A DNA stretch of 22,213 bases, from the UHGV virus genome UHGV-0117651. One strand, 5' to 3'. The notes below the pieces were generated by a model that was not told the origin of the DNA, did not search any database, and saw nothing but the letters and a program-made list of their open reading frames with translations. A program made the translations under genes and the position numbers. Shown piece by piece: positions 2,821-17,938 of this stretch; the stretch's first letter is position 1, and every line of letters starts with the position of its first letter. Source of the DNA: a virus.

Positions 2821-3315
2821 ATGGCCATGATGATGATCTATGGCATGTTTGTTTTTGAGCTGCGCACGTTGCCGCATCAGCAGTTACAGCAAAACAAAAG
2901 CTGGCGGCACGTGAAAAATGAACGCGTTAACCGTTCAGCAAGCTGGCAGTATATCGGGGCAGGCGATGATCGCATCGTTCTTTCTGGTGTGCTTTATCCT
3001 GAAATTACAGGTGGCGAAGTGTCGCTTTCGTTGCTGACCTCGCAGGCATATACAGGACGCCCCTGGCCTCTGATTGATGGTGTCGGGCAGATTTACGGCA
3101 TGTATGTCCTGACCGGAACGAATACGACCCGCTCCGAGTTTGATCGCTACGGTAAGGCGAAAAAGATAGAATTTTCACTGACTCTTGAACGCTGTGATGA
3201 GGATTTGCGGGAGCGCCTGCAATCCTCATCGTTCAGTGATATGCTGTCCGGCTTCAAAGATAAGGTCACATCATCCCTTAACAGCGCGGCCAGCTCCGTT
3301 AAAGGGCTGTTTTGA
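2821..3315 (+). CDS. U: Phage tail protein gpU (P2 family)
   Basis: 164-aa ORF starting MAMMMIYGMFVFELRTLPHQ, which resembles the P2 gpU N-terminus as recalled from memory. GGAG lies 7 nt upstream of the ATG. It directly follows the tape measure gene as in P2. Confidence 0.8.
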   Translation: MAMMMIYGMFVFELRTLPHQQLQQNKSWRHVKNERVNRSASWQYIGAGDDRIVLSGVLYPEITGGEVSLSLLTSQAYTGRPWPLIDGVGQIYGMYVLTGTNTTRSEFDRYGKAKKIEFSLTLERCDEDLRERLQSSSFSDMLSGFKDKVTSSLNSAASSVKGLF

Positions 3316-3322
3316 TTAACGC

Positions 3323-3352
3323 AAAACCGCTAATGGTCAGATTAGCGGTTTT
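3323..3352. terminator. Bidirectional intrinsic terminator between gpU (+) and the invertase (-)
   Basis: Perfect 12-bp inverted repeat AAAACCGCTAAT / ATTAGCGGTTTT with a 6-nt loop. A-run on the 5' side and T-run on the 3' side, so it forms a hairpin followed by a U-tract on both strands. Confidence 0.6.
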
Positions 3353-3941
3353 CATTTTCCTGAGTCTGCCTGGTTGTTTCTTCAGCCTGTATATCGCCTA
3401 CAGGGTGATAACGATAAATCGTCGATATGCCGATGTCGTAAATGATCGCCAGTTGTTTCCTGTCATGACCGTTTTTAATCAGCCTCGCTATTTGCTCGTG
3501 TTGTTCTTTTGTCAACTTCGGGCGACGTCCGCCAATGCGTCCTTGTGCGCGTGCTGCTGCCAGCCCGGCCAGTGTACGCTCTACAATTAATTCACGTTCC
3601 ATTTCGGCTAAAGCCCCCATGACGTGAAAAAAGAAACGCCCCATGGGTGTTGATGTGTCAATGCTGTCCGTCAGACTACGGAAATTAACACCTTTTTCCC
3701 GCAATTCCTCAATAAGCGTGATCAGGTGTTTCATACTTCTGCCCAGTCTGTCCAGCTTCCAGACAACCAGCGTATCTCCTTCTGATAGCGTTCTGAGCAG
3801 TTTTTTCAATCCCGGTCTGGCTGATTTCGTTCCGCTGATTTTATCTTCAAAAATCAGTTCACATCCTGCGCAGTTCAGTGCATTGCGTTGTAAATCCGTG
3901 TTCTGGTCATTTGTTGACACACGAATATAGCCAATTTGCAT
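3342..3941 (-). CDS. Site-specific DNA invertase, serine recombinase of the Hin/Gin/Cin/Pin family
   Basis: Translation from the ATG at 3941 gives MQIGYIRVSTNDQNTDLQRNAL...VVWKLDRLGRSMKHLI...GRFFFHVMGALAEMERELIVERTLAGLAAARAQGRIGGRRPKL, with a C-terminal helix-turn-helix. This closely matches the Hin/Gin sequences as I recall them. AGAGGA lies 8 nt upstream of the ATG. The ORF track start at 4136 is an upstream extension. Confidence 0.9.
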   Translation of the reverse strand: MQIGYIRVSTNDQNTDLQRNALNCAGCELIFEDKISGTKSARPGLKKLLRTLSEGDTLVVWKLDRLGRSMKHLITLIEELREKGVNFRSLTDSIDTSTPMGRFFFHVMGALAEMERELIVERTLAGLAAARAQGRIGGRRPKLTKEQHEQIARLIKNGHDRKQLAIIYDIGISTIYRYHPVGDIQAEETTRQTQENENR

Positions 3942-3955
3942 AAAAAACATCCTCT

Positions 3956-4519
3956 TTGTTTCGTGAAAAATACATAGTTGGTATAGGTAGGGATAAAAAC
4001 GAAAACGTTGGTTTGGGGGAAGGTTCTGCGCTGCCTGTTGGTGTGCCCGTTCCGTGGCCCTCAGCAACACCACCAACGGGCTGGCTGAAATGTAACGGCG
4101 CAGCATTTTCTTCTGAAATGTATCCCGGACTGGCAAAGGCTTACCCCACCAATAAATTACCGGATTTACGGGGTGAATTTATTCGTGGCTGGGATGATGG
4201 ACGTAGTGCGGATGCGGGGAGAACAATATTATCCGCTCAAGGTGATGCCATACGTAATATCTATGGTGAGTTCAAGACTGTAAACACTGAAAATTATTCA
4301 ATATGGGAATCAGTAGGCTCGTTTAAGGGGGCAGTGGTGCCTTTAAATTCCTCAACAAACAATAGTTATTTCTCCTTAGTCAGAAGTATGGTGACAGAAA
4401 GGACAGACGGCGCTGTTTACCCAAAAGTGATTGGCCTTGATGCTTCAAAAATTGTTCCAACTGCAAACGAAAACCGCCCACGCAACATTGCGTTTAATTA
4501 CATCGTAAGGGCAGCATGA
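3956..4519 (+). CDS. Tail-fibre C-terminal variable cassette 1 (phage tail-collar domain). No canonical start; the frame is open through the crossover site, as expected for a promoterless segment.
   Basis: Encodes GEGSALPVGVPVPWPSATPPTGWLKCNGAAFSSEMYPGLAKAYPTNKLPDLRGEFIRGWDDGR, which fits the tail-collar motif pattern (P-x-GWL-x-C-x-G, LPDLRG). It ends ...PRNIAFNYIVRAA then stop, a typical fibre terminus. Confidence 0.65.
   Translation: MFREKYIVGIGRDKNENVGLGEGSALPVGVPVPWPSATPPTGWLKCNGAAFSSEMYPGLAKAYPTNKLPDLRGEFIRGWDDGRSADAGRTILSAQGDAIRNIYGEFKTVNTENYSIWESVGSFKGAVVPLNSSTNNSYFSLVRSMVTERTDGAVYPKVIGLDASKIVPTANENRPRNIAFNYIVRAA
3996..4021 (+). other. Candidate invertase crossover site 1 (gix/hix-like), at the 5' edge of cassette 1
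   Basis: AAAACGAAAACG-TT-GGTTTGGGGGAA, with imperfect dyad symmetry AAACG/TT/GGTTT. It resembles the gix sequence as I recall it. The right half and central dinucleotide recur unchanged at 4513-4538 and 5028-5053. Confidence 0.5.
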
Positions 4520-4538
4520 AAACGTTGGTTTGGGGGAA
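4513..4538 (+). other. Candidate invertase crossover site 2
   Basis: GAAAACGTTGGTTTGGGGGAAGG, identical to the site 1 core, placed immediately after the stop codon of cassette 1. Confidence 0.5.
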
Positions 4539-5033
4539 GGTTCTGCGCTGCCTGTTGGTGTGCCCGTTCCATGGCCCTCAGCCACACCACCAACGGGCTG
4601 GCTGAAATGCAATGGTGCAGCATTTTCTTCTGAAATGTACCCCAAACTGGCAAAAGCCTACCCCGCAAATAAATTACCGGATTTACGGGGAGAATTTATT
4701 CGCGGCTGGGATGATGGGCGCGGGGTGGATGCTGGCCGCGCTTTGCTTAATTGGCAGCCACACACAATTTTGGATCATGCACACTATATGGAATTATGGA
4801 CCGGGAACGGACTTGCCGTGGAAAGTGCACGGGAAGGATTAAACCCTGGAATACTGGCTACATACGGGGACGGGGGAATAGTTAAAACAGACGAACCCGG
4901 TTTAAGGGTGCCTTCCTCACTACGAGCCATTAGCTCTCGTAATGTAAAACGGTTTGGTGAAATTAGTGGAAATGTAGGTACAGAAACTCGCCCTCGCAAC
5001 GTTGCATTCAATTACATCGTAAGAGCCGCATGA
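4530..5033 (+). CDS. Tail-fibre C-terminal variable cassette 2 (tail-collar domain)
   Basis: The first ~60 residues are near-identical to cassette 1 and the remainder diverges. It ends ...ETRPRNVAFNYIVRAA then stop. Confidence 0.65.
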   Translation: MGEGSALPVGVPVPWPSATPPTGWLKCNGAAFSSEMYPKLAKAYPANKLPDLRGEFIRGWDDGRGVDAGRALLNWQPHTILDHAHYMELWTGNGLAVESAREGLNPGILATYGDGGIVKTDEPGLRVPSSLRAISSRNVKRFGEISGNVGTETRPRNVAFNYIVRAA

Positions 5034-5053
5034 AAACGTTGGTTTGGGGGAAG
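5028..5053 (+). other. Candidate invertase crossover site 3
   Basis: The same conserved block, immediately after the stop codon of cassette 2. Confidence 0.5.
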
Positions 5054-5604
5054 GCTCTGCACTGCCCGTTGGTGTGCCTGTTCCATGGCCCTCAGCCACA
5101 CCACCAACGGGCTGGCTGAAATGTAACGGTGCAGCATTTTCTTCTGAAATGTATCCCGGACTGGCAAAGGCTTACCCCACAAATAAATTACCGGATTTAC
5201 GCGGAGAATTTATCCGTGGCTGGGATGATGGGCGAGGAATTGATGCGGCACGCGCTTTATTGAGCATTCAAAACGGGATGTTGGAAAAACACCGCCATAT
5301 TGTTGTAGCTAACGATGGATATGACACAAAAGATGAATGGGAGTTGGCTACGATTTTCAAAAAAACATATACACAAGGCAGGGGGCTTGATGCCACAAAT
5401 ACAGGAGGGAGTTTGATTCCATCATCGCCACGACGTCAGGTAACGCTACATCGGTATACAGATAAATTCCCAGACCGAACTGGTTGTTGGTCAGTGCGCC
5501 TGACAGTCGAAACTTACAGCTCAGTCTGCCACCCCGTGTCAGCAGGGAGACTGCGTCATCCACCGGATGCATCAGGGACCAAGTTTTATTGCTCTGCTTG
5601 GTAA
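5044..5604 (+). CDS. Tail-fibre C-terminal variable cassette 3 (tail-collar domain). The 3' end is atypical or degenerate and overlaps the antisense ORF on the - strand.
   Basis: Conserved N-terminal block, then a divergent region that keeps a Q...H-x-H pattern (SIQNGMLEKHRHIVV). It lacks the NYIVRAA terminus of cassettes 1 and 2. Confidence 0.45.
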   Translation: MGEGSALPVGVPVPWPSATPPTGWLKCNGAAFSSEMYPGLAKAYPTNKLPDLRGEFIRGWDDGRGIDAARALLSIQNGMLEKHRHIVVANDGYDTKDEWELATIFKKTYTQGRGLDATNTGGSLIPSSPRRQVTLHRYTDKFPDRTGCWSVRLTVETYSSVCHPVSAGRLRHPPDASGTKFYCSAW

Positions 5605-6560
5605 CCTTAAACACACCATCTTCCAGCGCAACACTGCCGCCGGTGATGGTCCAGCCCTGCGCAGCAGCCTCTCCGGCTGTCGGCAGCAGGGAGACTGTAC
5701 GAACGGATGTGTCACCATCAGACGGCCCCGATGGAGTGTCGCCGCCGGGCGAGGGTTTGATTTCCGGTGCGGTACCGCTGATGAAGGCGCTGGTTCGACC
5801 AACTGCGTTCAGAATAGCGGTTGCCAGGCGATCCGAAATAATGCCCCTGCGCGCCCATGAACTGAAATGTGTCGGACGATTTGACGATACCCAATTACCA
5901 TTACTACGGGATTGCGCGCCGTAATAACCTGCATCAGCAATATCCGGGTCTTCTGCCGGTAAGTTGGTGGGCGTGTTGTTGCCGTTACCGTCGGTCATGA
6001 ACGGCACAAAGAAAACGTTGTCGCTCTCCCTGTTTTTGTACGCGCCGTAGACGGAGTCATACTGTGTGCCGTATGTGTTTTTCCAGTAATACGTCGTGTC
6101 GCCACAAATCCACGGTATAACTGCAGCACTGCCGCCATGGCACTGCGCGTTAAATCCGGAAAGGTCAGTACGGAACTGCTTCAGCATGGCCGTGAACAGG
6201 TCCGGTTGCTGTGCGTAGGTGGCAGCGCTCATGTCAAATTCGCCCTGCATCCAGCACACCGCCAGCAACACATTTTTCGGGTTCTTCTGTAATGCCGCTT
6301 TGGTGCGTGCGATCAGGTCCTGATATAACGGCTTACCCGCACCCCAGCGCGCCGAATCCTGGCTGGCCCCCGTGGTCGTACTGAATGTTCCCTCCGCGCC
6401 CTGAGTGAATGCCGAACCACCACGACAGCATGGTACCAGCAGGATCCCCGCGTTATTCGGGATATACGGGAGTAGTTTTTTGGCAATATGAAGTCCCTGT
6501 CCCACACAGCCGTACTGACCTTTGCTCAGGTCCGCCTTCGGATGATTCAGCGTACTCATA
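5357..6560 (-). CDS. SGNH/SASA-family hydrolase-like protein (sialate O-acetylesterase-like), possibly a receptor-modifying or receptor-binding tail accessory protein. The C-terminal ~80 codons overlap cassette 3 on the other strand, so the true 3' end is uncertain.
   Basis: Translation from the ATG at 6560 begins MSTLNHPKADLSKGQYGCVGQG. Blocks LLVPCCRGGSAF, VCWMQGEFD and THFSSWARRGI resemble the conserved blocks of the sialate O-acetylesterase domain as I recall them, but the expected GQSN serine motif is not obvious. The start ATG overlaps the stop of truncated gpL as ATGA. Confidence 0.45.
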
Positions 6561-6828
6561 CCGGAACATCGGCCAGCGTCTGATGGCCAGCCGCCTGCTG
6601 TTCCTGCTGCCACGCTTCCAGTTCGCGGGTAACGTGAGCCACGGCCCCAGTGGCGGTATGCAGCAGGCGGGAGGTGGTCACGCGGCCCGGCAGTCGTACC
6701 GCCAGACGCAGCTCGCGCAGCACAATATCCGGCCAGAATGCACCTGCTGAAATGCGAGTGTCGCCATCATCGGTATCGGTGATGTCGTCCTCTGCGGGTC
6801 CTGGTTCAGTTCTGGCAACCATACTCAT
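6556..6828 (-). pseudogene. L: Capsid completion protein gpL, N-terminal ~90 codons only (truncated)
   Basis: MSMVARTE...AFWPDIVLRELRLAVRLPGR...EAWQQEQQAAGHQTLADVPV resembles the gpL N-terminus (FFFPDIDPKRVRERMRLEQ...REQKIAAGFTRLADVPADD, recalled from memory). The ORF stops right after LADVPV, where P2 gpL as I recall it continues for ~80 more residues. GGAG lies upstream of the ATG at 6828. Confidence 0.6.
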
Positions 6829-6842
6829 GGAGTTCACTCCTG

Positions 6843-6907
6843 AAAAAAAATCGGGCGGTGGGTGCGCGGTGTAAACGGTCACGGAGTCAAACCGGAACAC
6901 CGCGCAC
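6843..6907 (-). terminator. Hairpin plus U8 tract between gpM and gpL' (possible attenuator or terminator)
   Basis: 10-bp inverted repeat GTGCGCGGTG (6862-6871) / CACCGCGCAC (6898-6907). On the - strand it is followed ~11 nt later by a run of eight T. The spacing is not optimal for a terminator. Confidence 0.3.
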
Positions 6908-6931
6908 GCCGCCCGCTGACGGGGTCAGTCG

Positions 6932-7732
6932 TTAACCGCGCTTCGCCTTCTGCGACGCGGTGGTTTTTCGTGTTGCAGGCTTCTGCGTTGTCTTTTTACT
7001 TTTGCTGCTTTCGTCCTGCGTCTGCTGTGCGCTGGCGTCTTCTGGTGCGGCTGCGGAATCGGCTTTTTTCAGGGCGCGGGAAAGGGTTGCAATCTCGCGT
7101 TTCACACCTGCGTTCGGGTTCAGGTGCATCGCTTCGCGCAGCAGCTTCAGTGATGAGGCCATGTTGTCTGCATCGGTCAGGCCACGACGGGCAAAGGCAC
7201 ACGCCTTGCATAATTTGGCGCGCACTTCGTCCGGCATGTCCTGGTTGGCGACAATTTCCCAAAGTGTGTCCAGTGGTTCGATAAAGGCGGATAAATCCGC
7301 GTCGGCATCCGTCCCGGCCTGCGTCAGTACCGGGTTGCAGATTTCTTCGGTCAGTACCGTGGCAGCAGTACGGCCAAAGTTATCCGGCATGATGAGGTTG
7401 TGACGGACCACATATGCACCAATACGCAGCGCCAGCGGAAGATCGCCGCAGTCAATCGCCCACACCATCAGCGTGGCAATTACTTCGTCCTGTTGCCCGC
7501 CGTCAGTCTCCAGCGTTCCCTCAATCCAGCCGGAAAAGTCCGGCAACAACTCTTTTTTGATGGCGGCTTTCGCGCTTCTGGCCTGTACGCCCTTTAGCCT
7601 GGCCTGTGCCAGACGCAGACGATACAGCACCTCTTCATGCGCGGTACGCGCGGCGTGGTCCACACCTTCATTCGCCCGGCCTGCGCGCTGTGCCATCACG
7701 TTCTGCCAGTGTTGTTGTGCAGGAGTAATCAT
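6932..7732 (-). CDS. M: Terminase endonuclease (small) subunit gpM
   Basis: 266-aa ORF in the expected position after the major capsid gene. GGAGAG ribosome-binding site. Lys/Thr-rich C-terminal tail. Assigned by synteny and size to the P2 gpM family. Confidence 0.8.
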   Translation of the reverse strand: MITPAQQHWQNVMAQRAGRANEGVDHAARTAHEEVLYRLRLAQARLKGVQARSAKAAIKKELLPDFSGWIEGTLETDGGQQDEVIATLMVWAIDCGDLPLALRIGAYVVRHNLIMPDNFGRTAATVLTEEICNPVLTQAGTDADADLSAFIEPLDTLWEIVANQDMPDEVRAKLCKACAFARRGLTDADNMASSLKLLREAMHLNPNAGVKREIATLSRALKKADSAAAPEDASAQQTQDESSKSKKTTQKPATRKTTASQKAKRG

Positions 7733-9844: not shown

Positions 9845-11596
9845 ATGATTCAGGACGCTTTTGTGCGCCAGCGTGCGCGGCAACTTTACTGGCAGGGTTA
9901 TCCGCCCGCAGAAATATCACGTCTGATGGGAATAAACCCGAACACGATTTATGCGTGGAAAAAACGCGACCAGTGGGATGAAACGCCACCCGTGCAGCGT
10001 GTCACGCAGTCCATCGATGCGCGCCTCATCCAGCTTACTGAAAAACAGAATAAAACAGGCGGTGACTTTAAGGAAATTGACCTGCTGACCCGGCAGCTTA
10101 AAAAAATGCATGATGGCCAGCCGGATGCGACGGCCACAGGAAAGAAAGGCCGGGCGAAAAAACTCAAAAATCATTTCACGCCGGAACAGATTGCCGCACT
10201 GCGGGAAAAAATCATCAGCAGGCTGGAGTGGCATCAGCGGGGCTGGTTTGACTCCCTGACCCTTTGCAGGGAAGCCGGGATACGTAACAGGATGATCCTG
10301 AAATCCCGACAGATTGGCGCGACCTGGTATTTTGCACAGGAAGCACTGCTGATGGCGCTGCGTGACGATGTGGCGCAACCTTACCAGCGTAACCAGATTT
10401 TTTTGTCTGCGTCGCGTCGTCAGGCGTTCCAGTTTAAAAGCATTATTCAGAAGGCTGCGGCTGAAGTTGATGTGGAGCTGAAAGGGGGCGATAAAATCAT
10501 CCTCTCCAACGGCGCAGAGCTGCATTTTCTCGGCACTTCTGCTGCGTCGGCGCAGTCCTATACGGGCAATTTTTATTTTGATGAATTTTTCTGGGTCAGT
10601 CGCTTTGCTGAACTGCGCAAGGTGGCTGGCGCTATGGCAACCCTCAGCGGATTGCGGCGCACCTACTTCTCCACGCCATCCACCGAAACGCACGAAGCAT
10701 ACGCCTACTGGAACGGCGACCGCTGGAACGAGAAAAAGGCCACACATAAACGCCAGCGTTTTTCTGTGGACTGGAAAACACTGCATAACGGGCTTATCTG
10801 CCCTGACCGGACGTGGCGGCAAATTGTCACGCTGGAAGATGTGGTTAATCACGGCTGGAAACACACCGATATCGACGAAATTCGTGATGAAAACACCGAA
10901 GACGAGTTCCTCAATCTCTATATGTGTGAGTTTGTCCGCGAAGGGGAATCGGCATTTAACCTGAATATCCTGATTGGCTGCGGTGTTGACGGATACGACG
11001 ACTGGAAAGACTGGAAACCTTTTGCTCCCCGCCCGATGGGGAATCGTCCGGTATGGATTGGGTATGACGCAAACGGCAGCAGTGGCAACGGCGACAGCGG
11101 CGCTGTGTCCGTGGTGGTTCCTCCGGCTGTTCCTGGTGGCCGTTTTCGAACGGTGGAGACGCGACGCGTTCAGGGGCTGGAGTTTGAAGAACAGGCCAGA
11201 GTCATTGAAGATTTCACGTATCGCTACAACGTGGAACACATCGGCATTGATGTGACGGGCGGGAACGGGGAGGCTGTTTATCAGATAGTGAAACGGTTTT
11301 TCCCTGCCGCTATTCCGTACACCTTCACGCTGTCATCAAAACGGTCGCTTGTACTGAAAATGCTGCAAATAATGCGTGCCGGGCGGTGGGAATACGATCG
11401 CGCCGAACGCGAGCTGGTCGCGGCCTTTAACGCCGTGCGTAAGGTGAAAACACCGGGCGGCTTTATCACTTACGAAACGGACCGCGCGAGGGGGATCAGC
11501 CACGGCGACCTTGCGTGGGCAACCATGCTTGCTGTCATTAACGAACCAATTGGCGGCGAAGGAGAAAACGAGCGTTTCACGGTTATGGAGTTCTGA
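9845..11596 (+). CDS. P: Terminase large (ATPase) subunit gpP
   Basis: 583-aa ORF. Its size and position upstream of the portal gene match the P2 gpP family. Strong GGGGGAG ribosome-binding site. Confidence 0.85.
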   Translation: MIQDAFVRQRARQLYWQGYPPAEISRLMGINPNTIYAWKKRDQWDETPPVQRVTQSIDARLIQLTEKQNKTGGDFKEIDLLTRQLKKMHDGQPDATATGKKGRAKKLKNHFTPEQIAALREKIISRLEWHQRGWFDSLTLCREAGIRNRMILKSRQIGATWYFAQEALLMALRDDVAQPYQRNQIFLSASRRQAFQFKSIIQKAAAEVDVELKGGDKIILSNGAELHFLGTSAASAQSYTGNFYFDEFFWVSRFAELRKVAGAMATLSGLRRTYFSTPSTETHEAYAYWNGDRWNEKKATHKRQRFSVDWKTLHNGLICPDRTWRQIVTLEDVVNHGWKHTDIDEIRDENTEDEFLNLYMCEFVREGESAFNLNILIGCGVDGYDDWKDWKPFAPRPMGNRPVWIGYDANGSSGNGDSGAVSVVVPPAVPGGRFRTVETRRVQGLEFEEQARVIEDFTYRYNVEHIGIDVTGGNGEAVYQIVKRFFPAAIPYTFTLSSKRSLVLKMLQIMRAGRWEYDRAERELVAAFNAVRKVKTPGGFITYETDRARGISHGDLAWATMLAVINEPIGGEGENERFTVMEF

Positions 11597-12642
11597 TGAG
11601 CAGAAAAAATAAAAAAGTGCGCATGAGTTCACGCATTGATCTCGCTGATGCACTCAGGAAAGAATCGTCGCTCAGTGCATTCACTTTTGATGGTCCTTAT
11701 CGCCTGACCGGGCATGATTTGCTGGACAATATGTACTGTGCTGATAACGGGCGGTGGTATGAAACCCCGGTGGACTGGTACGGTCTGGCAAGAGCCGCCC
11801 GGCAAACGTCCTGGCATCAGTCTGCGCTTTACTTTAAGCGCAATGTATTGCTCGGTTGCTACATCCCGCACCCGCTGCTTTCCCGGCAGGATTTCTCGGC
11901 ACTGGCGCTGGACTGGTTTGTGTTCGGTAACGCATTCCTTGAGCTTCGAAGCAATATGCTCGGCGAACCGCTTAAATTACGGCACGCCCTGGCGAAATAC
12001 ATACGACGCGGAAGCGATCTTGAATCATGGTGGTATGTGCAGGATGGCAAGGATGCGTTCCAGTTTCGCCCTGGCAAAGTGTGCCACCTGATGAATCCTG
12101 ACATTAACCAGGAAATCTACGGCATGCCGGAATATCTCGGCGCATTACTCTCGGCCAGCCTGTCTCATTCGGCGGACATGTTCAGAAAACTGTATTACGA
12201 CAACGGATCCCACGCCGGGTGCATCATCTACATCGGTGCAGCGCAGGTAAACCGCGAAAGCATGGACTCTCTGAAAGAAACGCTACAGGGTGCACGTGGT
12301 GGCGGTGCGTTTAAAAACGTGCTCATTCATGCGCCCAACGGGGGCAAAGAGGGGGTGCAAATTTTGCCGTTCCAGCAGATCACCGCAAAGGATGAGTTCA
12401 TGAATGTTAAGGCTGCATCCCGTGATGATGTGCTGGCTGCGCACCGCGTTCCGCCGCAACTAATGGGGGCGATGCCGGGTGAAAAAAGTGCGTTTGGTGA
12501 TGTGGAGAAGGCCGCGCGGGTTTACGCAATTAACGAGCTGATGCCCATCATGGAGGCCATGAAGCACATCAATGACTGGCTTGGCGAAGAGGTGATCCGC
12601 TTTAACCCTTACGCACTGTTAGATACCCAGCTCACATCCTGA
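11596..12642 (+). CDS. Q: Portal (capsid portal vertex) protein gpQ
   Basis: 348-aa ORF whose start overlaps the gpP stop (TGATGA). Size and synteny match P2 gpQ. Confidence 0.85.
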   Translation: MSRKNKKVRMSSRIDLADALRKESSLSAFTFDGPYRLTGHDLLDNMYCADNGRWYETPVDWYGLARAARQTSWHQSALYFKRNVLLGCYIPHPLLSRQDFSALALDWFVFGNAFLELRSNMLGEPLKLRHALAKYIRRGSDLESWWYVQDGKDAFQFRPGKVCHLMNPDINQEIYGMPEYLGALLSASLSHSADMFRKLYYDNGSHAGCIIYIGAAQVNRESMDSLKETLQGARGGGAFKNVLIHAPNGGKEGVQILPFQQITAKDEFMNVKAASRDDVLAAHRVPPQLMGAMPGEKSAFGDVEKAARVYAINELMPIMEAMKHINDWLGEEVIRFNPYALLDTQLTS

Positions 12643-12669
12643 CGCGCTTCGCTTGTCTGCTGCTTCGCC

Positions 12670-12691
12670 GGGGCATAAAAAATTTATGCCC
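12670..12691. repeat. Perfect palindrome GGGGCATAAA-AA-TTTATGCCCC, 28 nt past the gpQ stop (hairpin; possible terminator or part of the cos region)
   Basis: Read directly from the sequence. In P2 the cos site lies about 100 bp beyond the end of Q. Confidence 0.35.
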
Positions 12692-13094
12692 CGACTCTCC
12701 AGCTCCTGTATCAGTCAGATAATTTCACGACGCTTTACAGTATATCGCCACCATCGACGGTCAGACTCTTACGCAATCCCACCGCGTTGACTGCATGTTC
12801 TTCGCCGCCTCAGTGCGATTTTGACGGCCTTACCTTTCACCCCATCAAATCAGAATCCCTCACGTATTTTTCACGCTCAGCGTGAGAAATACAGCCATTC
12901 TGTTGTGTCTCTGCGACATCGTTCAGGGAATGCTATTTACCCCCTGAAACGCGGGCTGTTCCCCCGTCACCTGCGCGTAGAAAAAACGCGTTTTTTGTGC
13001 ACGTACGGATCCTTGACGGATCCAGCCGCCACGCGGGCCGGAAGTACAAAAAGTCGTTCAAAAAAATTGTGCAAACTTGTGCACTATCGTGCAA

Positions 13095-13121
13095 ACAAAA
13101 AAAAGCGCCTTATCGGCGCTT
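13095..13121 (-). terminator. Intrinsic terminator for the small - strand ORF
   Basis: AAGCGCC-TTATC-GGCGCTT stem-loop. On the - strand it is followed by a run of eight T. It lies 9 nt after the stop of ORF 13130-13399. Confidence 0.6.
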
Positions 13122-13129
13122 CAAAAATA

Positions 13130-13399
13130 TCAATTGTTGCTGTGTATTAATCGCCAACCACGAACATATGCTTCATAGGCATCTCTGTGCCTTACAGTTC
13201 CAGCCTGGCTAAACGGAATGTTAGCTAAAACTAAATCATTCTGAGCCATAGCGCGTCCTTCAAGCGCATCTTTTATGCCTAGCTCAAAAGCACAGGCAGC
13301 GCATTTGTGCCGACCTTCTTGTCCTTGATATTCAGGGAGAGACAGAAATGTTGGGTTATAACGATGAGGGTTCTTGCAAATACCTGTTTTAGCCCGCAC
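13130..13399 (-). CDS. Hypothetical small protein (89 aa, GTG start)
   Basis: GAGG lies 8 nt upstream of the GTG at 13399 and a strong terminator lies just after the stop. No recognisable family. Contains Cys at C8, C33 and C36. Confidence 0.4.
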   Translation of the reverse strand: MRAKTGICKNPHRYNPTFLSLPEYQGQEGRHKCAACAFELGIKDALEGRAMAQNDLVLANIPFSQAGTVRHRDAYEAYVRGWRLIHSNN

Positions 13400-13420
13400 T
13401 TTATTTACCTCATAGGAAAA

Positions 13421-13501
13421 ATATGCGTGCCTTTACAGAGGTGCGTGTAAGCAATAAAATATACGACGCACATTTTGATTTACTTCGGAAGGCACGCATA
13501 T
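13421..13501. repeat. 13-bp perfect inverted repeat ATATGCGTGCCTT / AAGGCACGCATAT with a 55-bp spacer
   Basis: Read directly from the sequence. It lies just upstream (in - strand terms) of the ribosome-binding site of the small ORF. The spacer holds a second imperfect dyad, GTGCGTG...ACGACGCAC. Confidence 0.45.
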
Positions 13502-13530
13502 CAGGTTAAGTGAGTCCGACCGAGTTTTAC

Positions 13531-13563
13531 GCCCCAATAGTTGCTGCTATTGGGGCGTTTTGC
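13531..13563 (+). terminator. Intrinsic terminator on the + strand (GCCCCAATAG-TTGCTG-CTATTGGGGC, then GTTTTGC)
   Basis: Perfect 10-bp stem with a 6-nt loop and a T-tract on the + strand only. No + strand coding gene ends here, so it may terminate a small noncoding transcript. Confidence 0.45.
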
Positions 13564-13763
13564 ATGGACAATGCCGCGCAATTATCTTGTCGCTCACAAT
13601 GCGAACGATCTTACAAAAAGGCACATTACTGTCAAGATAATTGATCGTTTTAATCGATAGATAATAGACAATCTATTTGTTTAACAGATCGATTATTGAA
13701 GTAAGTGTGCCAAATGGAATGATACTGTTTCTATAAATGTGAGCATTTTTCGCGCAGATGCTT

Positions 13764-14075
13764 TTACTCAGGAAATAACGCCCGGATATTCCCAGCCATC
13801 TGGCTGGTTATCTTAGCCACTGGTGCAGACTGTGCTTCAAACTTTTTTGAGCTGATTTGTGTCACAGGTAAAATCTCATCATCAGCCCATGCGGTCAGTC
13901 GGTAAGCCTCTGCCGGATTCGTCTTCAGAAGTGCCAGCCCGGCCAGAAAAGCCACGCGTTGGCCGCTTTTGCGGGCTTCTGGTGTAAGGCTGTCCAGCCA
14001 GGCGCATGCTTCTCCTTCGTTCTTGACGGCAGCTGGCTTCAGATAGAAACTTATTCTTCTGGTTGGTGTCGTCAT
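13764..14075 (-). CDS. parR: Plasmid partition adaptor ParR (StbB-like)
   Basis: 103-aa ORF immediately after parM with a 4-nt gap. Its N-terminal region (ISFYLKPA...LDSLTPEARKSGQRVAFLAGLALL) resembles R1 ParR as I recall it. Confidence 0.7.
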   Translation of the reverse strand: MTTPTRRISFYLKPAAVKNEGEACAWLDSLTPEARKSGQRVAFLAGLALLKTNPAEAYRLTAWADDEILPVTQISSKKFEAQSAPVAKITSQMAGNIRALFPE

Positions 14076-14079
14076 TGGT

Positions 14080-15039
14080 TTACTCCTTGTTCATTGCGTA
14101 CAGCCCATTAACCAGAGCAAACTGTGGCACCCCGTCCGCGATGAAAGTCGCATTAACTCCGCAGGCTTCGCGGATAGCGGGTGCCACAATCTCCGCCCCG
14201 CCACCGACAACCATCACCCGCCCGTAACCGGAAAAACCCGCCAGCGCGCGGATCACTCGTTGTTTCAGTGTCTCCTCCTTTTCACGAATAACCGCCATCA
14301 GGCTGTTGTAATGCGCGTCATTGTGAATGTGCTGGCGCAGCCAGGCTTCATCGTGACGGTGCTCAATAATGGTATTGGCGATGTGGTGACTGGTACGCAT
14401 ACCGTTAGTGGCCATCACCGACAGCACGGCATCAGCCATCAGGGAAACGCCTACGTGTGGATCGCAAAACACCTGGCTGATACCTGCCAGCTGCCCCTGA
14501 ACCTTTGCCACATCCAGCGTGGTTCCGCCCAAATCCACAATCAGCAGGGATTCAAACGGACTCATGTCAGCCAGTGCCTTAAAGCCAGCCGGAATGGATT
14601 CAGGCATAACCCGCACGTTACGGATAGTGAATGCTTCGCCGTTCTGGTACTCCACCGGGCGCATAACGTTCGCTTTTTTGCGGTTGATGTTGGCTATGTC
14701 CGGCTGTGCGTTTGTGTCGAAATACTCGCTCAGTGGCAGGGTGACAACCACATCCACCTCCTGTGGCGTGATGCCTGATTTGACCAGCGCGTGATGAATG
14801 GCAATGACATTCACATCACTGTACTGGTATTGCGTGTCGGTCGTCTGGACAAAGCGATCGCTGACCGGATCAAAACCATAGCGCACGCCATCAAGCATGT
14901 AGTTCGCGGGCTGCGTGCCACCGAACGGCGCAGACCATTCCGACTTGAAGCTGTTCGGGCTGATGGCGTTGCGGCGTTCGCCGTTCTCAGTCCATGCCAG
15001 CTTGATGTTGGTGGAGCCGTCGTCAATACAAATTTTCAT
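14080..15039 (-). CDS. parM: Actin-like plasmid segregation ATPase ParM (StbA)
   Basis: MKICIDDGSTNIKLAW, ISPNSFK, YSDVNVIAIHHAL, LLIVDLGGTTLDV, GFSGYGRVMVVGGGAEI and LVNGLYAM closely match the R1 ParM motifs as I recall them. AAGGA ribosome-binding site. Confidence 0.9.
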   Translation of the reverse strand: MKICIDDGSTNIKLAWTENGERRNAISPNSFKSEWSAPFGGTQPANYMLDGVRYGFDPVSDRFVQTTDTQYQYSDVNVIAIHHALVKSGITPQEVDVVVTLPLSEYFDTNAQPDIANINRKKANVMRPVEYQNGEAFTIRNVRVMPESIPAGFKALADMSPFESLLIVDLGGTTLDVAKVQGQLAGISQVFCDPHVGVSLMADAVLSVMATNGMRTSHHIANTIIEHRHDEAWLRQHIHNDAHYNSLMAVIREKEETLKQRVIRALAGFSGYGRVMVVGGGAEIVAPAIREACGVNATFIADGVPQFALVNGLYAMNKE

Positions 15040-15070
15040 GTCGCTTTTCCTTATGTTGATTAATTAATCG

Positions 15071-15181
15071 TTTACGGGATTCTGAAATCCCGTTTTTGCC
15101 TGTTTTGTGCGCGCTTCATATATCGCTGCGCGTTTTTTGCTCATTTACGGGATTCGTGAGTCCCGTTTCTGTCTGTTTTTT
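15071..15181. repeat. Two ~38-bp direct repeats, each with an internal dyad (TTTACGGGATTC-N-TCCCGTTT...CTGTTTT), spaced 73 bp apart: candidate parC-like centromere or operator, or + strand terminators
   Basis: Copy 1 at 15071-15108 and copy 2 at 15144-15181, read directly. A GATTAATTAATC palindrome lies at 15058-15069, next to the parM start. Copy 2 lies inside the last codons of the gpA ORF. Confidence 0.45.
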
Positions 15182-17938
15182 GTTTCCACTGGTCAGGCCA
15201 CCCCGCAGCAGGTCTGCTTTGCGGCTGGCGCGTTCAGTGGTTTCACTGATTCTCTGTGCGTGCTCTGCGTCGCGGATGGCGCGCAGCATGTCAGAAAGCA
15301 CGGTAACGGGAGTTTTCATGGTGTTCTGGTCCTGCTGAATTGTGGATGCCAGGCGTGCGGCGGCTTCGGGTTCTGATGCCCCGAGCTGCTCCAGATAGCT
15401 GGCGACCGGGTTATGGCGGATCTCCATGCTGCATACGCCGTGATTACGGCTCAGGCGCTGCCAGAGCTGCGTGATTCGGCTGTCCGGGCGGGTATCCGGT
15501 TTGCGTACAATTTCAAATCCCTGCGGTGCAATGATGCTGCCGTCAACGTACAGACTGCCGCCCCGTAACAGGTGCTGCATCTGTTGTTCACCGATATGCA
15601 GGCCGAGAGATTCAGCAGACTCCCGCCATTCTTTAGCGAGTAATTCGTGGTTATCAGGCAAAGGCCGCTGCTGTTTGCGGCTCTGTGTCCAGCTCTGCAT
15701 TTCATCACTGCTGTTTTTTGCCTGTTTGTCACGAAGCGAACGCATCAGCGCCCGGCGTTCGTGCCGTTTCAGTGAGCGCATCCATTCGTTCACTTCAACG
15801 CCGTCAGGAAGCTGCGGCCACGGTGCTGGCCGTTCTTCCGACTGTTCTGTCCCGCTGTTGCCTGTTTCCTGTACACGGGGACAGTTATTGCCACGAGTCC
15901 AAGGGGCGGCAGGGCCGCCCTGAAGGTCAAAACCATTTTCGCGGGCGCTGTCTTCCGCTTCCGGTTTGCGTCTTACCAGCTTCCAGTTATCCGGATGCGT
16001 GCATACGCGGGAAGACTCCCCAATGAGCGGCGACCAGATCCCGTAAATCTGTACGCTCTGTTCACCGTAATCGTTCAGCTCATCTGCGAGGTCGTAGGCG
16101 GTGCGAATCAGGTAGTCTTTGCGTGGAACAAGTACGCCACCCTGTTTCTCAATGTAGGTGGCAAAACATCCGGCATCAGCGGCAGCGAGTACCGCGTCCA
16201 TTGCGTCATCCTTCAGCCGTTGCGGGCCTTCCGGGTTGCGTGCCATCTGGCTGGCAAGGCGGCGCAGTTCACGCCACACCTGACGGGAGGGGATACCAAA
16301 GAACTGGAACTGGCGGACCCGGTGAAGGCGCGCCCAGCCGATGGCGCGTTCCACGCTCTCGGCCATTGATTTTCCGGTTTCGTGGTCAACGCGTGGCTTG
16401 CCCGTTTTCGGGTCGATGCCATCCACGGCGCGGCTGTCCAGGTTTTTTCCGATGTAGGTCGCGATATAGCTGGTTGGTGTGCCTTTTGAGCCGTCGACAT
16501 ACTCCACCTTAAAGCGCGGAGTAATATCATTGCCCAGCTCGTGGCGGTCTTCCTGAATGGCAATATCGCGGGTGATGGCCACGATGCTGTCGATTTCTTC
16601 CGGATGAGCAAAGACCATCATATGCCAGTGCACGGTGCCGTCATGGTGAGGCTCCACCGTGCGGATGCCATACCAGCGCAGACCGTCGCGGTTCAGTTTT
16701 TTGCGGACTGCCGCAAAAAACGTGTTAACCAGGTAATCGCTGGAGTCGCGCATGGTGGCCCCGTTCCATTTGGGGTTCGGATGACCGTTCTCCGTTGTTG
16801 CGTGGTATTTTGACGGGCAGGTGACAGTCAGAAACACCGCTCTGTCGCCACGGGCTTCGGCCAGAAGTTCCAGTCCCTTCATGGTGGCCATCATTTCTGC
16901 CTTACGGTGAACCGGGTTACTTACTCCCGCGTAATACACCGTCTCGAGATCAATCGTGAACCCGTCTTCATTTTCTAGCATGAAACTTTTCAGGAAATCG
17001 CGTGTTTTCTCGCGCTGTGCGCGAAACTCGCTTAACGCGTCCTGGCTCAGATAGGGTGATGTTTTTCTGGAAACCAGACAGGCGGCGCGGAGTTGTTCTT
17101 CTCTCCACTCGCAACGTAACAGCCACAGTTTGCGTTTCCACCATTCCGCACAGGTCAGGCGAAGGATTGCGCCCGGCAGCAGCTCCGTGTCTGGTTCGTT
17201 CCTCCGGTCTTTGTCTGTTGTCAGTGCGTCATAATGTGGAGGCATGGCGTGCAGGTGTAACGCCATGCGGGCCAGCATCTGATACGCCTTCAGCGTTACA
17301 TCCATGGTCAGCTCGCCATCGGTCGCGCCAAAGCCATCGCAGAGTTTTTCGAAGGTGCTGCTGAACATCGCCGCCGTCATGGTGGCCAGCGTCTGTATCT
17401 GGTGTTTGTTGAGCTGCGGCAGGTAAAGCAAATCGTCCAGGCGTTCGCGTCCGGCAAGGGAGCGATAACCCGGTGTCAGCCAGTGTCCGTCAGTGCGATC
17501 CAGACGTTCGAATATTTTGCGCAGGGTTCCGCGTGCATAGCGTTCCGCCTGCCAGCTCTTTTTGCCTTTCCGGCGATCGGCTTCCTGTTTTTTGCGCAGG
17601 AAGGAGAGGTGGCGAATAAGCGGATCGCGCAGATAGGACGGCAGCAGGTGCAGCGAGGCCATGGCTTCATCCACCGCGCCTCGTGCCTGTTTTCTGGCGT
17701 CTCCTGCCAGTGTGATGGTTTTGTCCTGTTTTTCCTGTGCGTCCAGGCTTTTATTAATCAGGTTGCCCAGCGGCGTGGCGGAGAACGCCGCATCAGCCAT
17801 TTCCTGGCGGCGTTCGTTCTCTGCCCGGTAGGCATCCAGCCAGGAGGAAAGCGCGGATTCAGGAGCGGGGATCCCCGTTCCTTCACGCCCCACGGCGTGG
17901 CGCGGTTGTTGCCAGTCCCTGATGTACTCTGCCGTCAT
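15116..17938 (-). CDS. A: Rolling-circle replication initiator or endonuclease (P2 gpA family)
   Basis: 940-aa ORF with an H-x-H metal-binding motif (HWHMMVF) and a Tyr-containing motif (YIATYIGKN), characteristic of gpA-type initiators. It is the last large gene of the early operon. The ORF is longer than gpA as I recall it, with an extended C-terminus. Confidence 0.8.
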   Translation of the reverse strand: MTAEYIRDWQQPRHAVGREGTGIPAPESALSSWLDAYRAENERRQEMADAAFSATPLGNLINKSLDAQEKQDKTITLAGDARKQARGAVDEAMASLHLLPSYLRDPLIRHLSFLRKKQEADRRKGKKSWQAERYARGTLRKIFERLDRTDGHWLTPGYRSLAGRERLDDLLYLPQLNKHQIQTLATMTAAMFSSTFEKLCDGFGATDGELTMDVTLKAYQMLARMALHLHAMPPHYDALTTDKDRRNEPDTELLPGAILRLTCAEWWKRKLWLLRCEWREEQLRAACLVSRKTSPYLSQDALSEFRAQREKTRDFLKSFMLENEDGFTIDLETVYYAGVSNPVHRKAEMMATMKGLELLAEARGDRAVFLTVTCPSKYHATTENGHPNPKWNGATMRDSSDYLVNTFFAAVRKKLNRDGLRWYGIRTVEPHHDGTVHWHMMVFAHPEEIDSIVAITRDIAIQEDRHELGNDITPRFKVEYVDGSKGTPTSYIATYIGKNLDSRAVDGIDPKTGKPRVDHETGKSMAESVERAIGWARLHRVRQFQFFGIPSRQVWRELRRLASQMARNPEGPQRLKDDAMDAVLAAADAGCFATYIEKQGGVLVPRKDYLIRTAYDLADELNDYGEQSVQIYGIWSPLIGESSRVCTHPDNWKLVRRKPEAEDSARENGFDLQGGPAAPWTRGNNCPRVQETGNSGTEQSEERPAPWPQLPDGVEVNEWMRSLKRHERRALMRSLRDKQAKNSSDEMQSWTQSRKQQRPLPDNHELLAKEWRESAESLGLHIGEQQMQHLLRGGSLYVDGSIIAPQGFEIVRKPDTRPDSRITQLWQRLSRNHGVCSMEIRHNPVASYLEQLGASEPEAAARLASTIQQDQNTMKTPVTVLSDMLRAIRDAEHAQRISETTERASRKADLLRGGLTSGNKKQTETGLTNPVNEQKTRSDI

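Follow-up and report, generated by a model that had tools for sequence, protein, structure and literature searches.

The 22,213-nucleotide viral genome UHGV-0117651 (this whole stretch is referred to as the window, and all positions are counted from its first letter) carries on its minus strand a two-gene partition module, parMR, homologous on sequence grounds to the ParM/ParR pair of plasmid R1. The element that harbors it is, judged from its relatives in the databases, a P88-like (Xuanwuvirus) prophage of the P2 family. Within this family parMR, acquired in one or two ancient capture events, is a lineage-conserved module beside an accessory hotspot and does not belong to the exchangeable cargo of that hotspot. 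The leading explanation, to which we give about even odds, is a functional type II ParMRC machine, kept as a fixed early or replication-block module of the integrative P88-like lineage and moving extrachromosomal phage circles that arise on infection or excision. A broader reading is put forward tentatively, at a little short of even confidence: R1-family ParMRC would be an ancient early-gene module that integrative P2-like phages in several genera of the Enterobacterales have passed on mainly by vertical descent. It would position or segregate transient phage circles in lytic replication or before integration, as a Gram-negative counterpart of the AlpAC system that combines a genuine plasmid ParM with a centromere reduced to two units, which overlaps the end of the replication gene gpA.

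The ParM and ParR Proteins

Both open reading frames are intact and adjacent on the minus strand, with parM (14080-15039, 319 amino acids, aa) separated by 4 nucleotides (nt) from parR (13764-14075, 103 aa). ParM is assigned as an actin-like segregation ATPase by its Pfam matches, PF06406 StbA_N (E = 3.5e-82) and PF21523, the C-terminal domain of ParM (E = 1.4e-68), and by the alignment of its residues 2-316 with the crystal-structure sequence of R1 ParM, 1mwk (E = 8.6e-93). In a preliminary description of this DNA the protein was credited with motifs near-identical to those of R1 ParM. This holds for the motifs, which are in fact identical (DDGSTNIK, DLGGTTLD, and GGGAE, together with the PES catalytic segment), but not for the protein as a whole, whose overall identity to R1 ParM amounts to 46.7%. 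Two of the components that define an R1-type type II ParMRC system are clearly present, namely an actin-fold ATPase with both domains and intact phosphate-1, phosphate-2, and adenosine motifs, followed directly at the 3′ side of parM by a StbB/ParR homologue. Residues D6, D7, G8, S9, T10, E147, D169, G171-D176, and G279-A282 are invariant in 12 relatives, and the catalytic motifs remain so in relatives down to ≈50% identity. Purifying selection on parM is strong, as seen in a ratio of nonsynonymous to synonymous substitution rates (dN/dS) of 0.059 across 69 alleles and in the retention of the full 319 aa by 87 of 91 copies.

The proposal that a ParR-like adaptor follows parM was borne out as well. 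ParR, a candidate centromere-binding adaptor, matches PF10784 Plasmid_stab_B (E = 1.4e-23), and its N-terminal 55 residues are 35% identical to R100/R1 ParR (pairwise E = 2e-8); the PHROGs label is "partition protein" for both products (ParM 1e-90, ParR 2.4e-58), such that the profile and sequence check suggested at the outset places both in the expected families. The N-terminal segment RRISFYLKP, the putative ribbon, is invariant and the linker at residues ≈65-92 is hypervariable (29-51 alleles), and the extreme C-terminal tail, here NIRALFPE, follows the pattern N-[IA]-x-x-[LFM]-F-P in all phage alleles. This tail aligns with those of distant phage ParRs and with the R100 tail KKNAMKLIN, with one invariant Asn in an alignment of nine sequences. 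Since ribbon and tail are kept while the linker varies freely, the pattern points to a working adaptor. An AlphaFold2 (AF2) model of the ParR monomer (29 alleles) is of low confidence, with a predicted local distance difference test score (pLDDT) of 57.8; its helices at residues 20-29, 32-52, 54-61, and 86-100 come after an unstructured RRISFYLKP segment, an arrangement compatible, at this low confidence, with a dimeric ribbon-helix-helix (RHH) fold. A search of ParR against the sequences of the PDB gave no match.

The two genes differ strongly in the depth of their variation. The synonymous divergence dS is 0.37 for parR versus 0.087 for parM, and allele proteins are 52-98% identical for ParR versus 92-100% for ParM. 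Several ParR classes, which differ in helices and linker, can be distinguished (window 13764-14075, loci L013-L092), and the putative DNA-contacting ribbon and the palindromes upstream of parM are the same across all of them. By this measure the parR alleles appear much older than the parM alleles, because recombination from the adjoining hotspot probably reaches into parR. The boundary of this recombination seems to lie inside parR or at its start.

A Candidate parC

Two direct repeats of 42 nt, 73 base pairs (bp) apart, straddle the stop codon of gpA (lag-73 autocorrelation, z = 5.2). The first block (15141-15182, minus strand), with the palindrome ACGGGA-N8-TCCCGT, lies within the 3′ end of gpA, and the second (15068-15109, minus strand) in the 76-nt gap between gpA and parM. 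Across the 22 kb window the exact palindrome pattern is confined to the repeats, with one occurrence in each; 0.63 occurrences are expected at up to two mismatches. Over 55 distinct upstream sequences the stems of the palindromes are conserved and the loops variable. The related phages of Plesiomonas and Hafnia carry repeat pairs of their own upstream of parM, 72 and 73 bp apart, and in three parMR loci of plasmids or integrative and conjugative elements (ICEs) the 170 nt upstream of parM hold two blocks 72-73 bp apart in addition to 11-bp iterons (L170, L171, L172). A fixed distance of 72-73 bp may belong to the conserved geometry of this parC family, and the repeat pair supports the assignment of a reduced, candidate parC. 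The interval singled out in the preliminary description, with its upper coordinate of 15181, happens to take in these repeats (15068-15182). A possible promoter between the two repeats, ATGAGC-16-TATATG, was rejected as a conserved element, being weak (7/12) and having its -10 element replaced in one allele group.

Integration State and Distribution

Records of phage P88, phage 520873, Citrobacter phage PhiSM, and further Xuanwuvirus members match the region at 94-99% identity, and the region is also matched by prophages in many E. coli chromosomes. In the chromosome of strain JB2, a near-identical copy adjoining dmsA forms an entire P2-like prophage, which encodes integrase, a C-type repressor, and Cox. 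As the window ends before the position of the integrase, its integration module has to be judged from such intact relatives, which carry int, C, and cox. The possibility that an adjacent plasmid had been joined to the phage by misassembly found no sign in its favor; nothing marks the parMR module as a misassembled plasmid fragment.

Among 5426 complete E. coli genomes, parM was found in 1303, in up to three copies per genome, with 1441 copies on chromosomes and 2 on plasmids. These numbers bear directly on the leading idea of the preliminary description, namely that the element is a facultative phage-plasmid, whose partition system would let it persist as a low-copy extrachromosomal prophage, a possibility on which Rousset et al. 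2022 also speculated. A complete partition module is indeed present, the 91-kb phage D6 has a gene annotated as encoding a StbA-type stability/partition protein, which is 48% identical to the ParM described here, and one circular record of 34,461 bp deposited as an E. coli plasmid (PLSDB NZ_CP148288.1, L011) comprises an entire P88-like phage. The P2-like Burkholderia phage KS14 is reported to be kept as a plasmid prophage (PMC3091744). KS14, however, has a RepB initiator, ParA, and a serine recombinase, and no homologue of P2 A (PMC3091744), whereas the search for a plasmid-type replication initiator in the window returned none, and the sole replication gene is the rolling-circle gpA (PF05840), part of the early operon that is under repression in P2. 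Nor do the parM copies behave as independent replicons, with 1441 of 1443 in chromosomes and the closest relative examined lying beside dmsA. The circular record, too, encodes integrase, C, and Cox; it represents either excised, replicating phage DNA caught by the assembly or a rare episomal state, and spontaneous excision explains a lone circular assembly equally well. Because the copies are chromosomal, the relatives carry an integrase, and a plasmid initiator is missing, a phage-plasmid is not the usual state of the P88-like family, and as an account of the module we regard it as unlikely. "Escherichia phage 520873" and similar records with CP numbers were also considered as free replicons and were rejected, since they are prophage regions excised in silico with host flanks.

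The sampling was widened in several ways. Two IMG/VR scans gave almost only P88-like contigs, and the wider context was taken from other contigs encoding ParM. A scan of genome contigs with a single protein yielded only three close loci, one of them labelled Vagococcus. On this contig (NZ_JBQPOM010000071.1, L004), labelled Vagococcus sp., ParM is 97% identical to the E. coli prophage copy and has the same flanks; it is probably a contamination or a mislabelled assembly.

A Fixed Module beside a Variable Hotspot

The placement of parMR between gpA and the cos/portal end, as originally proposed, was confirmed for the genes. Directly upstream of parM and co-oriented with it lies gpA (15116-17938, minus strand), a P2-type rolling-circle replication endonuclease of 940 aa (PF05840, E = 1.7e-130), and beyond parR follow the portal gene (11596-12642) and, further on, the gene of the large terminase (9845-11596). 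The P2 cos sequence was undetectable in the window, and the term "cos-proximal" thus refers to synteny only. The equivalent interval of P2 contains orf91, tin, and old, of which orf91 overlaps the stop codon of A, and tin and old are transcribed in the direction opposite to the early genes.

The further claim that parMR is cargo of this tin/old hotspot did not survive the comparison of loci. Across all 86 P88-like loci examined the DNA of parM is 96-99% identical, and variability begins only past the stop codon of parR, where a segment of 209-3717 nt (13093-13763 in the window, minus strand) holds many unrelated gene sets and ends at a conserved portal-proximal block of 450 nt. Cargo would be expected to vary in its presence among near-identical phages, and this is not what parMR does: 1322 genomes have the P88-type gpA, compared to 1279 with parM. 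The nearest ParMs outside the P88-like clade stem from Hafnia and Plesiomonas (62-63% identity), Serratia (58%), and Enterobacter (54%), and the P2-like prophages of these four other genera display the same order, in which gpA is followed by zero to two small genes, by parM and parR, and by a variable cargo that includes HicAB and a KAP NTPase, before ogr or portal is reached. Since the module is constant in the 86 loci, tracks P88-type gpA, and keeps its position across genera, it is not cargo.

The ParM-carrying phages are mutually distant, with identities of 31-54% for gpA, 30-47% for portal, and 38-46% for terminase (Serratia and Enterobacter aside), compared to 53-63% for ParM, which is accordingly the better conserved protein. 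ParMs at ≈50% identity have Rep3, ParAB, or Tra genes around them, the setting of a plasmid or an ICE, and homologues below 60% identity are found on more than 5000 plasmids. Neighbor-joining analysis divides the phage ParMs into two clades, both supported by 100% bootstrap and separate from the plasmid ParMs; as the union of the two receives 52% bootstrap, the tree accommodates one capture of parMR as well as two.

A role other than partition had been reserved in the preliminary description, and this caveat stands, yet no PADLOC defense model was found at E up to 1 for ParM, ParR, or the product of orf89, a small gene in the variable segment. Such an accessory role, expressed in the lysogen and distinct from the segregation of its own DNA, could consist of exclusion or incompatibility toward parMRC plasmids or related phages, or of another defense function of the hotspot. 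It would fit with the neighborhood of a proven anti-phage hotspot (PMC9122126), with the presence of up to three copies in some genomes, and with the far greater divergence of parR than of parM, which could reflect diversifying pressure. On the other hand, the module is constant and not swapped, ribbon and palindromes are alike in all ParR classes such that no specificity groups are evident, the variation of ParR falls mainly into the linker and lies next to a recombination-prone hotspot, and strand and operon position are those of early genes, unlike the oppositely transcribed tin and old of P2. Taken together, we consider this explanation quite improbable. That parMR is a functionless remnant in decay, left by some former recombination between plasmid and phage, is very unlikely indeed, for although truncated ParM clusters occur in the protein database, one of the 91 copies is shortened to 182 aa, and the prophage in the window has no baseplate and lysis genes, the low dN/dS, the 87 full-length copies, the catalytic motifs invariant down to ≈50% identity, and a position kept in five divergent phage lineages all speak against it.

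Proposed Mechanism

Because parMR shares the strand of gpA, follows it at a distance of 76 nt with no sigma70-like promoter or sense-strand terminator predicted in the interval, and takes the position of P2 orf91, it would be expressed with the early operon. According to this proposal, the early transcript would continue past gpA into parM and parR. Both proteins would be made once infection or induction has taken place, and in the repressed lysogen the two genes would be largely silent. Dimers of ParR would bind both palindrome-bearing 42-nt repeats of the candidate parC. In the R1 system it is established that the ParR tail captures ParM-ATP filaments and that paired filaments exert the pushing; by analogy, the C-terminal tail of the phage ParR would capture growing ParM-ATP filaments, and paired filaments would push two parC-bearing circles apart. 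Since the copies are almost all chromosomal and the intact relatives bear an integrase, the DNA to be moved is most plausibly a transient extrachromosomal form, which would comprise the excised or newly injected phage circle together with its rolling-circle progeny. Replicating genomes may in this way be spread or positioned for efficient replication and packaging, as in the case of AlpAC of prophage CGP3; alternatively, or in addition, copies may reach both daughter cells before integration. Stable carriage as a plasmid would not be the normal outcome.

Several observations weigh against this proposal. The timing of parMR expression is deduced solely from the absence of consensus promoter and terminator matches, and the supplements of the transcriptome and proteome studies on enterohaemorrhagic E. 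coli (EHEC) contained no ParM data. The module may be idle in the present prophage, which appears defective or chimeric (see below). For ParR, neither the PDB sequence search nor the AF2 model with its low pLDDT confirmed the RHH fold, and no covariation was found between its helix class and the palindrome variants. The parC of R1 consists of ten 11-bp iterons; the candidate parC comprises two repeat units instead, and no 11-bp periodicity was detected upstream of parM, although R100 parC shows an 11-bp signal. There is no convincing or conserved promoter between the two blocks. Furthermore, the palindromes resemble intrinsic terminators on the opposite strand, and a common C-to-T change retains a G·U pair, which would also suit an RNA hairpin.

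The module is present, within a chromosomal prophage, in roughly one in four complete E. coli genomes. Should parMR organize phage DNA in replication or lysogenization, a very common family of enterobacterial phages would join the viruses whose replication is assisted by a bacterial cytoskeleton, and a minimal natural parC would be available for study; should it have no measurable effect, it would constitute an unusually well-conserved passenger. For the annotation of P2-like prophages it follows that parMR ought to be counted neither as hotspot cargo nor as evidence of a plasmid lifestyle.

State of the Prophage Copy and Flanking Features

The prophage in the window departs from its intact relatives in one region, where 3.2 kb (3321-6561) stand in for 8.6 kb of the intact P88-like prophage (L001, 5343-13964) with its tail-fiber, baseplate, lysis, and head-completion genes. 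The replacement includes a serine invertase (3342-4136, minus strand), three tandem tail-fiber C-terminal cassettes (3956-4519, 4530-5033, and 5044-5604), and a NanS/yjhS-like sialate O-acetylesterase (5357-6613, minus strand), whose DNA is 86% identical to that of Shiga toxin (Stx) phages and of lambdoid origin; a truncated gpL follows (6556-6900). The stretch 3000-7000 is covered to at most 56% by any complete E. coli genome. Either a defective prophage or a chimeric assembly is the probable explanation, while parMR itself is intact.

Within the variable segment, orf89 (13130-13399, minus strand) matches phrog_3941, a match that gives no function, and neither Pfam nor PADLOC. A sigma70 site close to consensus, TTGACA-16-TAAGAT (13635..13608), lies ahead of the gene, and a terminator (13122..13102) follows it. 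Its leader of ≈200 nt contains two strong hairpins, one at 13529-13558 and one formed by 13421-13433 with 13489-13501, the latter succeeded by a T run before the ribosome-binding site, such that orf89 could be an attenuator-controlled small defense or regulatory gene. A search of 12600-15400 against Rfam returned only two sub-threshold hairpin matches, at 13529-13558 in this cargo leader and unrelated to parMR.

The gpA protein, with 940 aa, is longer than that of P2 (761 aa) and those of other ParM-carrying phages (785-907 aa), and its Pfam match spans residues 179-503 only. The 3′ end of the gene is variable; in the IMG/VR locus L064 the part that encodes the C terminus is of another sequence as far as the first repeat. 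A dN/dS value for this 3′ end was unreliable, one locus having a different gpA 3′ end, and was not used. In the Serratia prophage (L008, 9378-9438), the stretch directly downstream of parR and ahead of hicAB contains an inverted repeat of 18 nt as well as three copies of a repeat that includes TGACTTCA; they could be a second ParR site or the operator of hicAB.

Comparison with Known Systems

The presence of a partition module in these phages is already known, since GenBank and RefSeq annotate the products as "plasmid segregation protein ParM" and "partition protein", the paper on Citrobacter PhiSM lists a parM gene as a fitness factor (PMC6456863), and Rousset et al. 2022 reported that roughly one in four P2-like phages of E. 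coli has a parMR module. The literature searched held no functional study of parMR in these phages. The present analysis adds the evidence against the plasmid and cargo readings, the conservation across genera, the asymmetry in divergence between ParR and ParM, and the candidate parC.

With the parMRC (stbAB) system of R1 and R100 the phage module shares the order parC-parM-parR (parC being a candidate here), the two Pfam domains and nucleotide-binding motifs of ParM together with its end-to-end alignment, and a repeat-bearing region directly upstream of parM. The ParRs fall into one Pfam family, their N-terminal domains are homologous, and their C-terminal tails have the invariant Asn in common. 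The differences lie in the moderate identities (46.7% for ParM, 35% over 55 aa for ParR), in the length of ParR, which has 103 aa compared to 116 aa in R100 and is devoid of the internal ...SDIVNILRSLFPKE segment, in the upstream region, where two 42-nt palindrome units are found in place of the 11-bp periodicity of R100 parC, and in the carrier, an integrative rolling-circle phage rather than a theta-replicating plasmid. From P88 and the other Xuanwuvirus members, which have the same module with ParM 98-99% identical and the same synteny, nothing essential separates the copy described here; it has a less common parR allele and the small cargo gene orf89, and its prophage is short of the 8.6 kb of morphogenesis and lysis genes.

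Phage D6, which we take to be a P1-like plasmid prophage, is comparable in bearing a partition gene of the ParM family, 48% identical to ParM here. KS14 resembles the element in its P2-like structural genes and in possessing a plasmid partition gene, ParA, and differs as a plasmid lysogen with RepB, devoid of a tyrosine integrase and of the P2 A protein (PMC3091744). Compared with both, the element in the window has kept gpA, its intact relatives keep int, C, and cox, and its copies are chromosomal. The functional model for the present proposal is prophage CGP3 of Corynebacterium glutamicum, where the actin AlpC and the adaptor AlpA are induced early and the phage DNA, excised as a circle, needs them to replicate efficiently (PMC4446434). 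Both systems pair an actin-like filament protein from an integrated prophage with a DNA-binding adaptor whose site, a candidate one in the P88-like phages, lies upstream of the operon; CGP3, on the other hand, is an unrelated phage of a Gram-positive host, and the function demonstrated there by experiment is proposed here from the genes.

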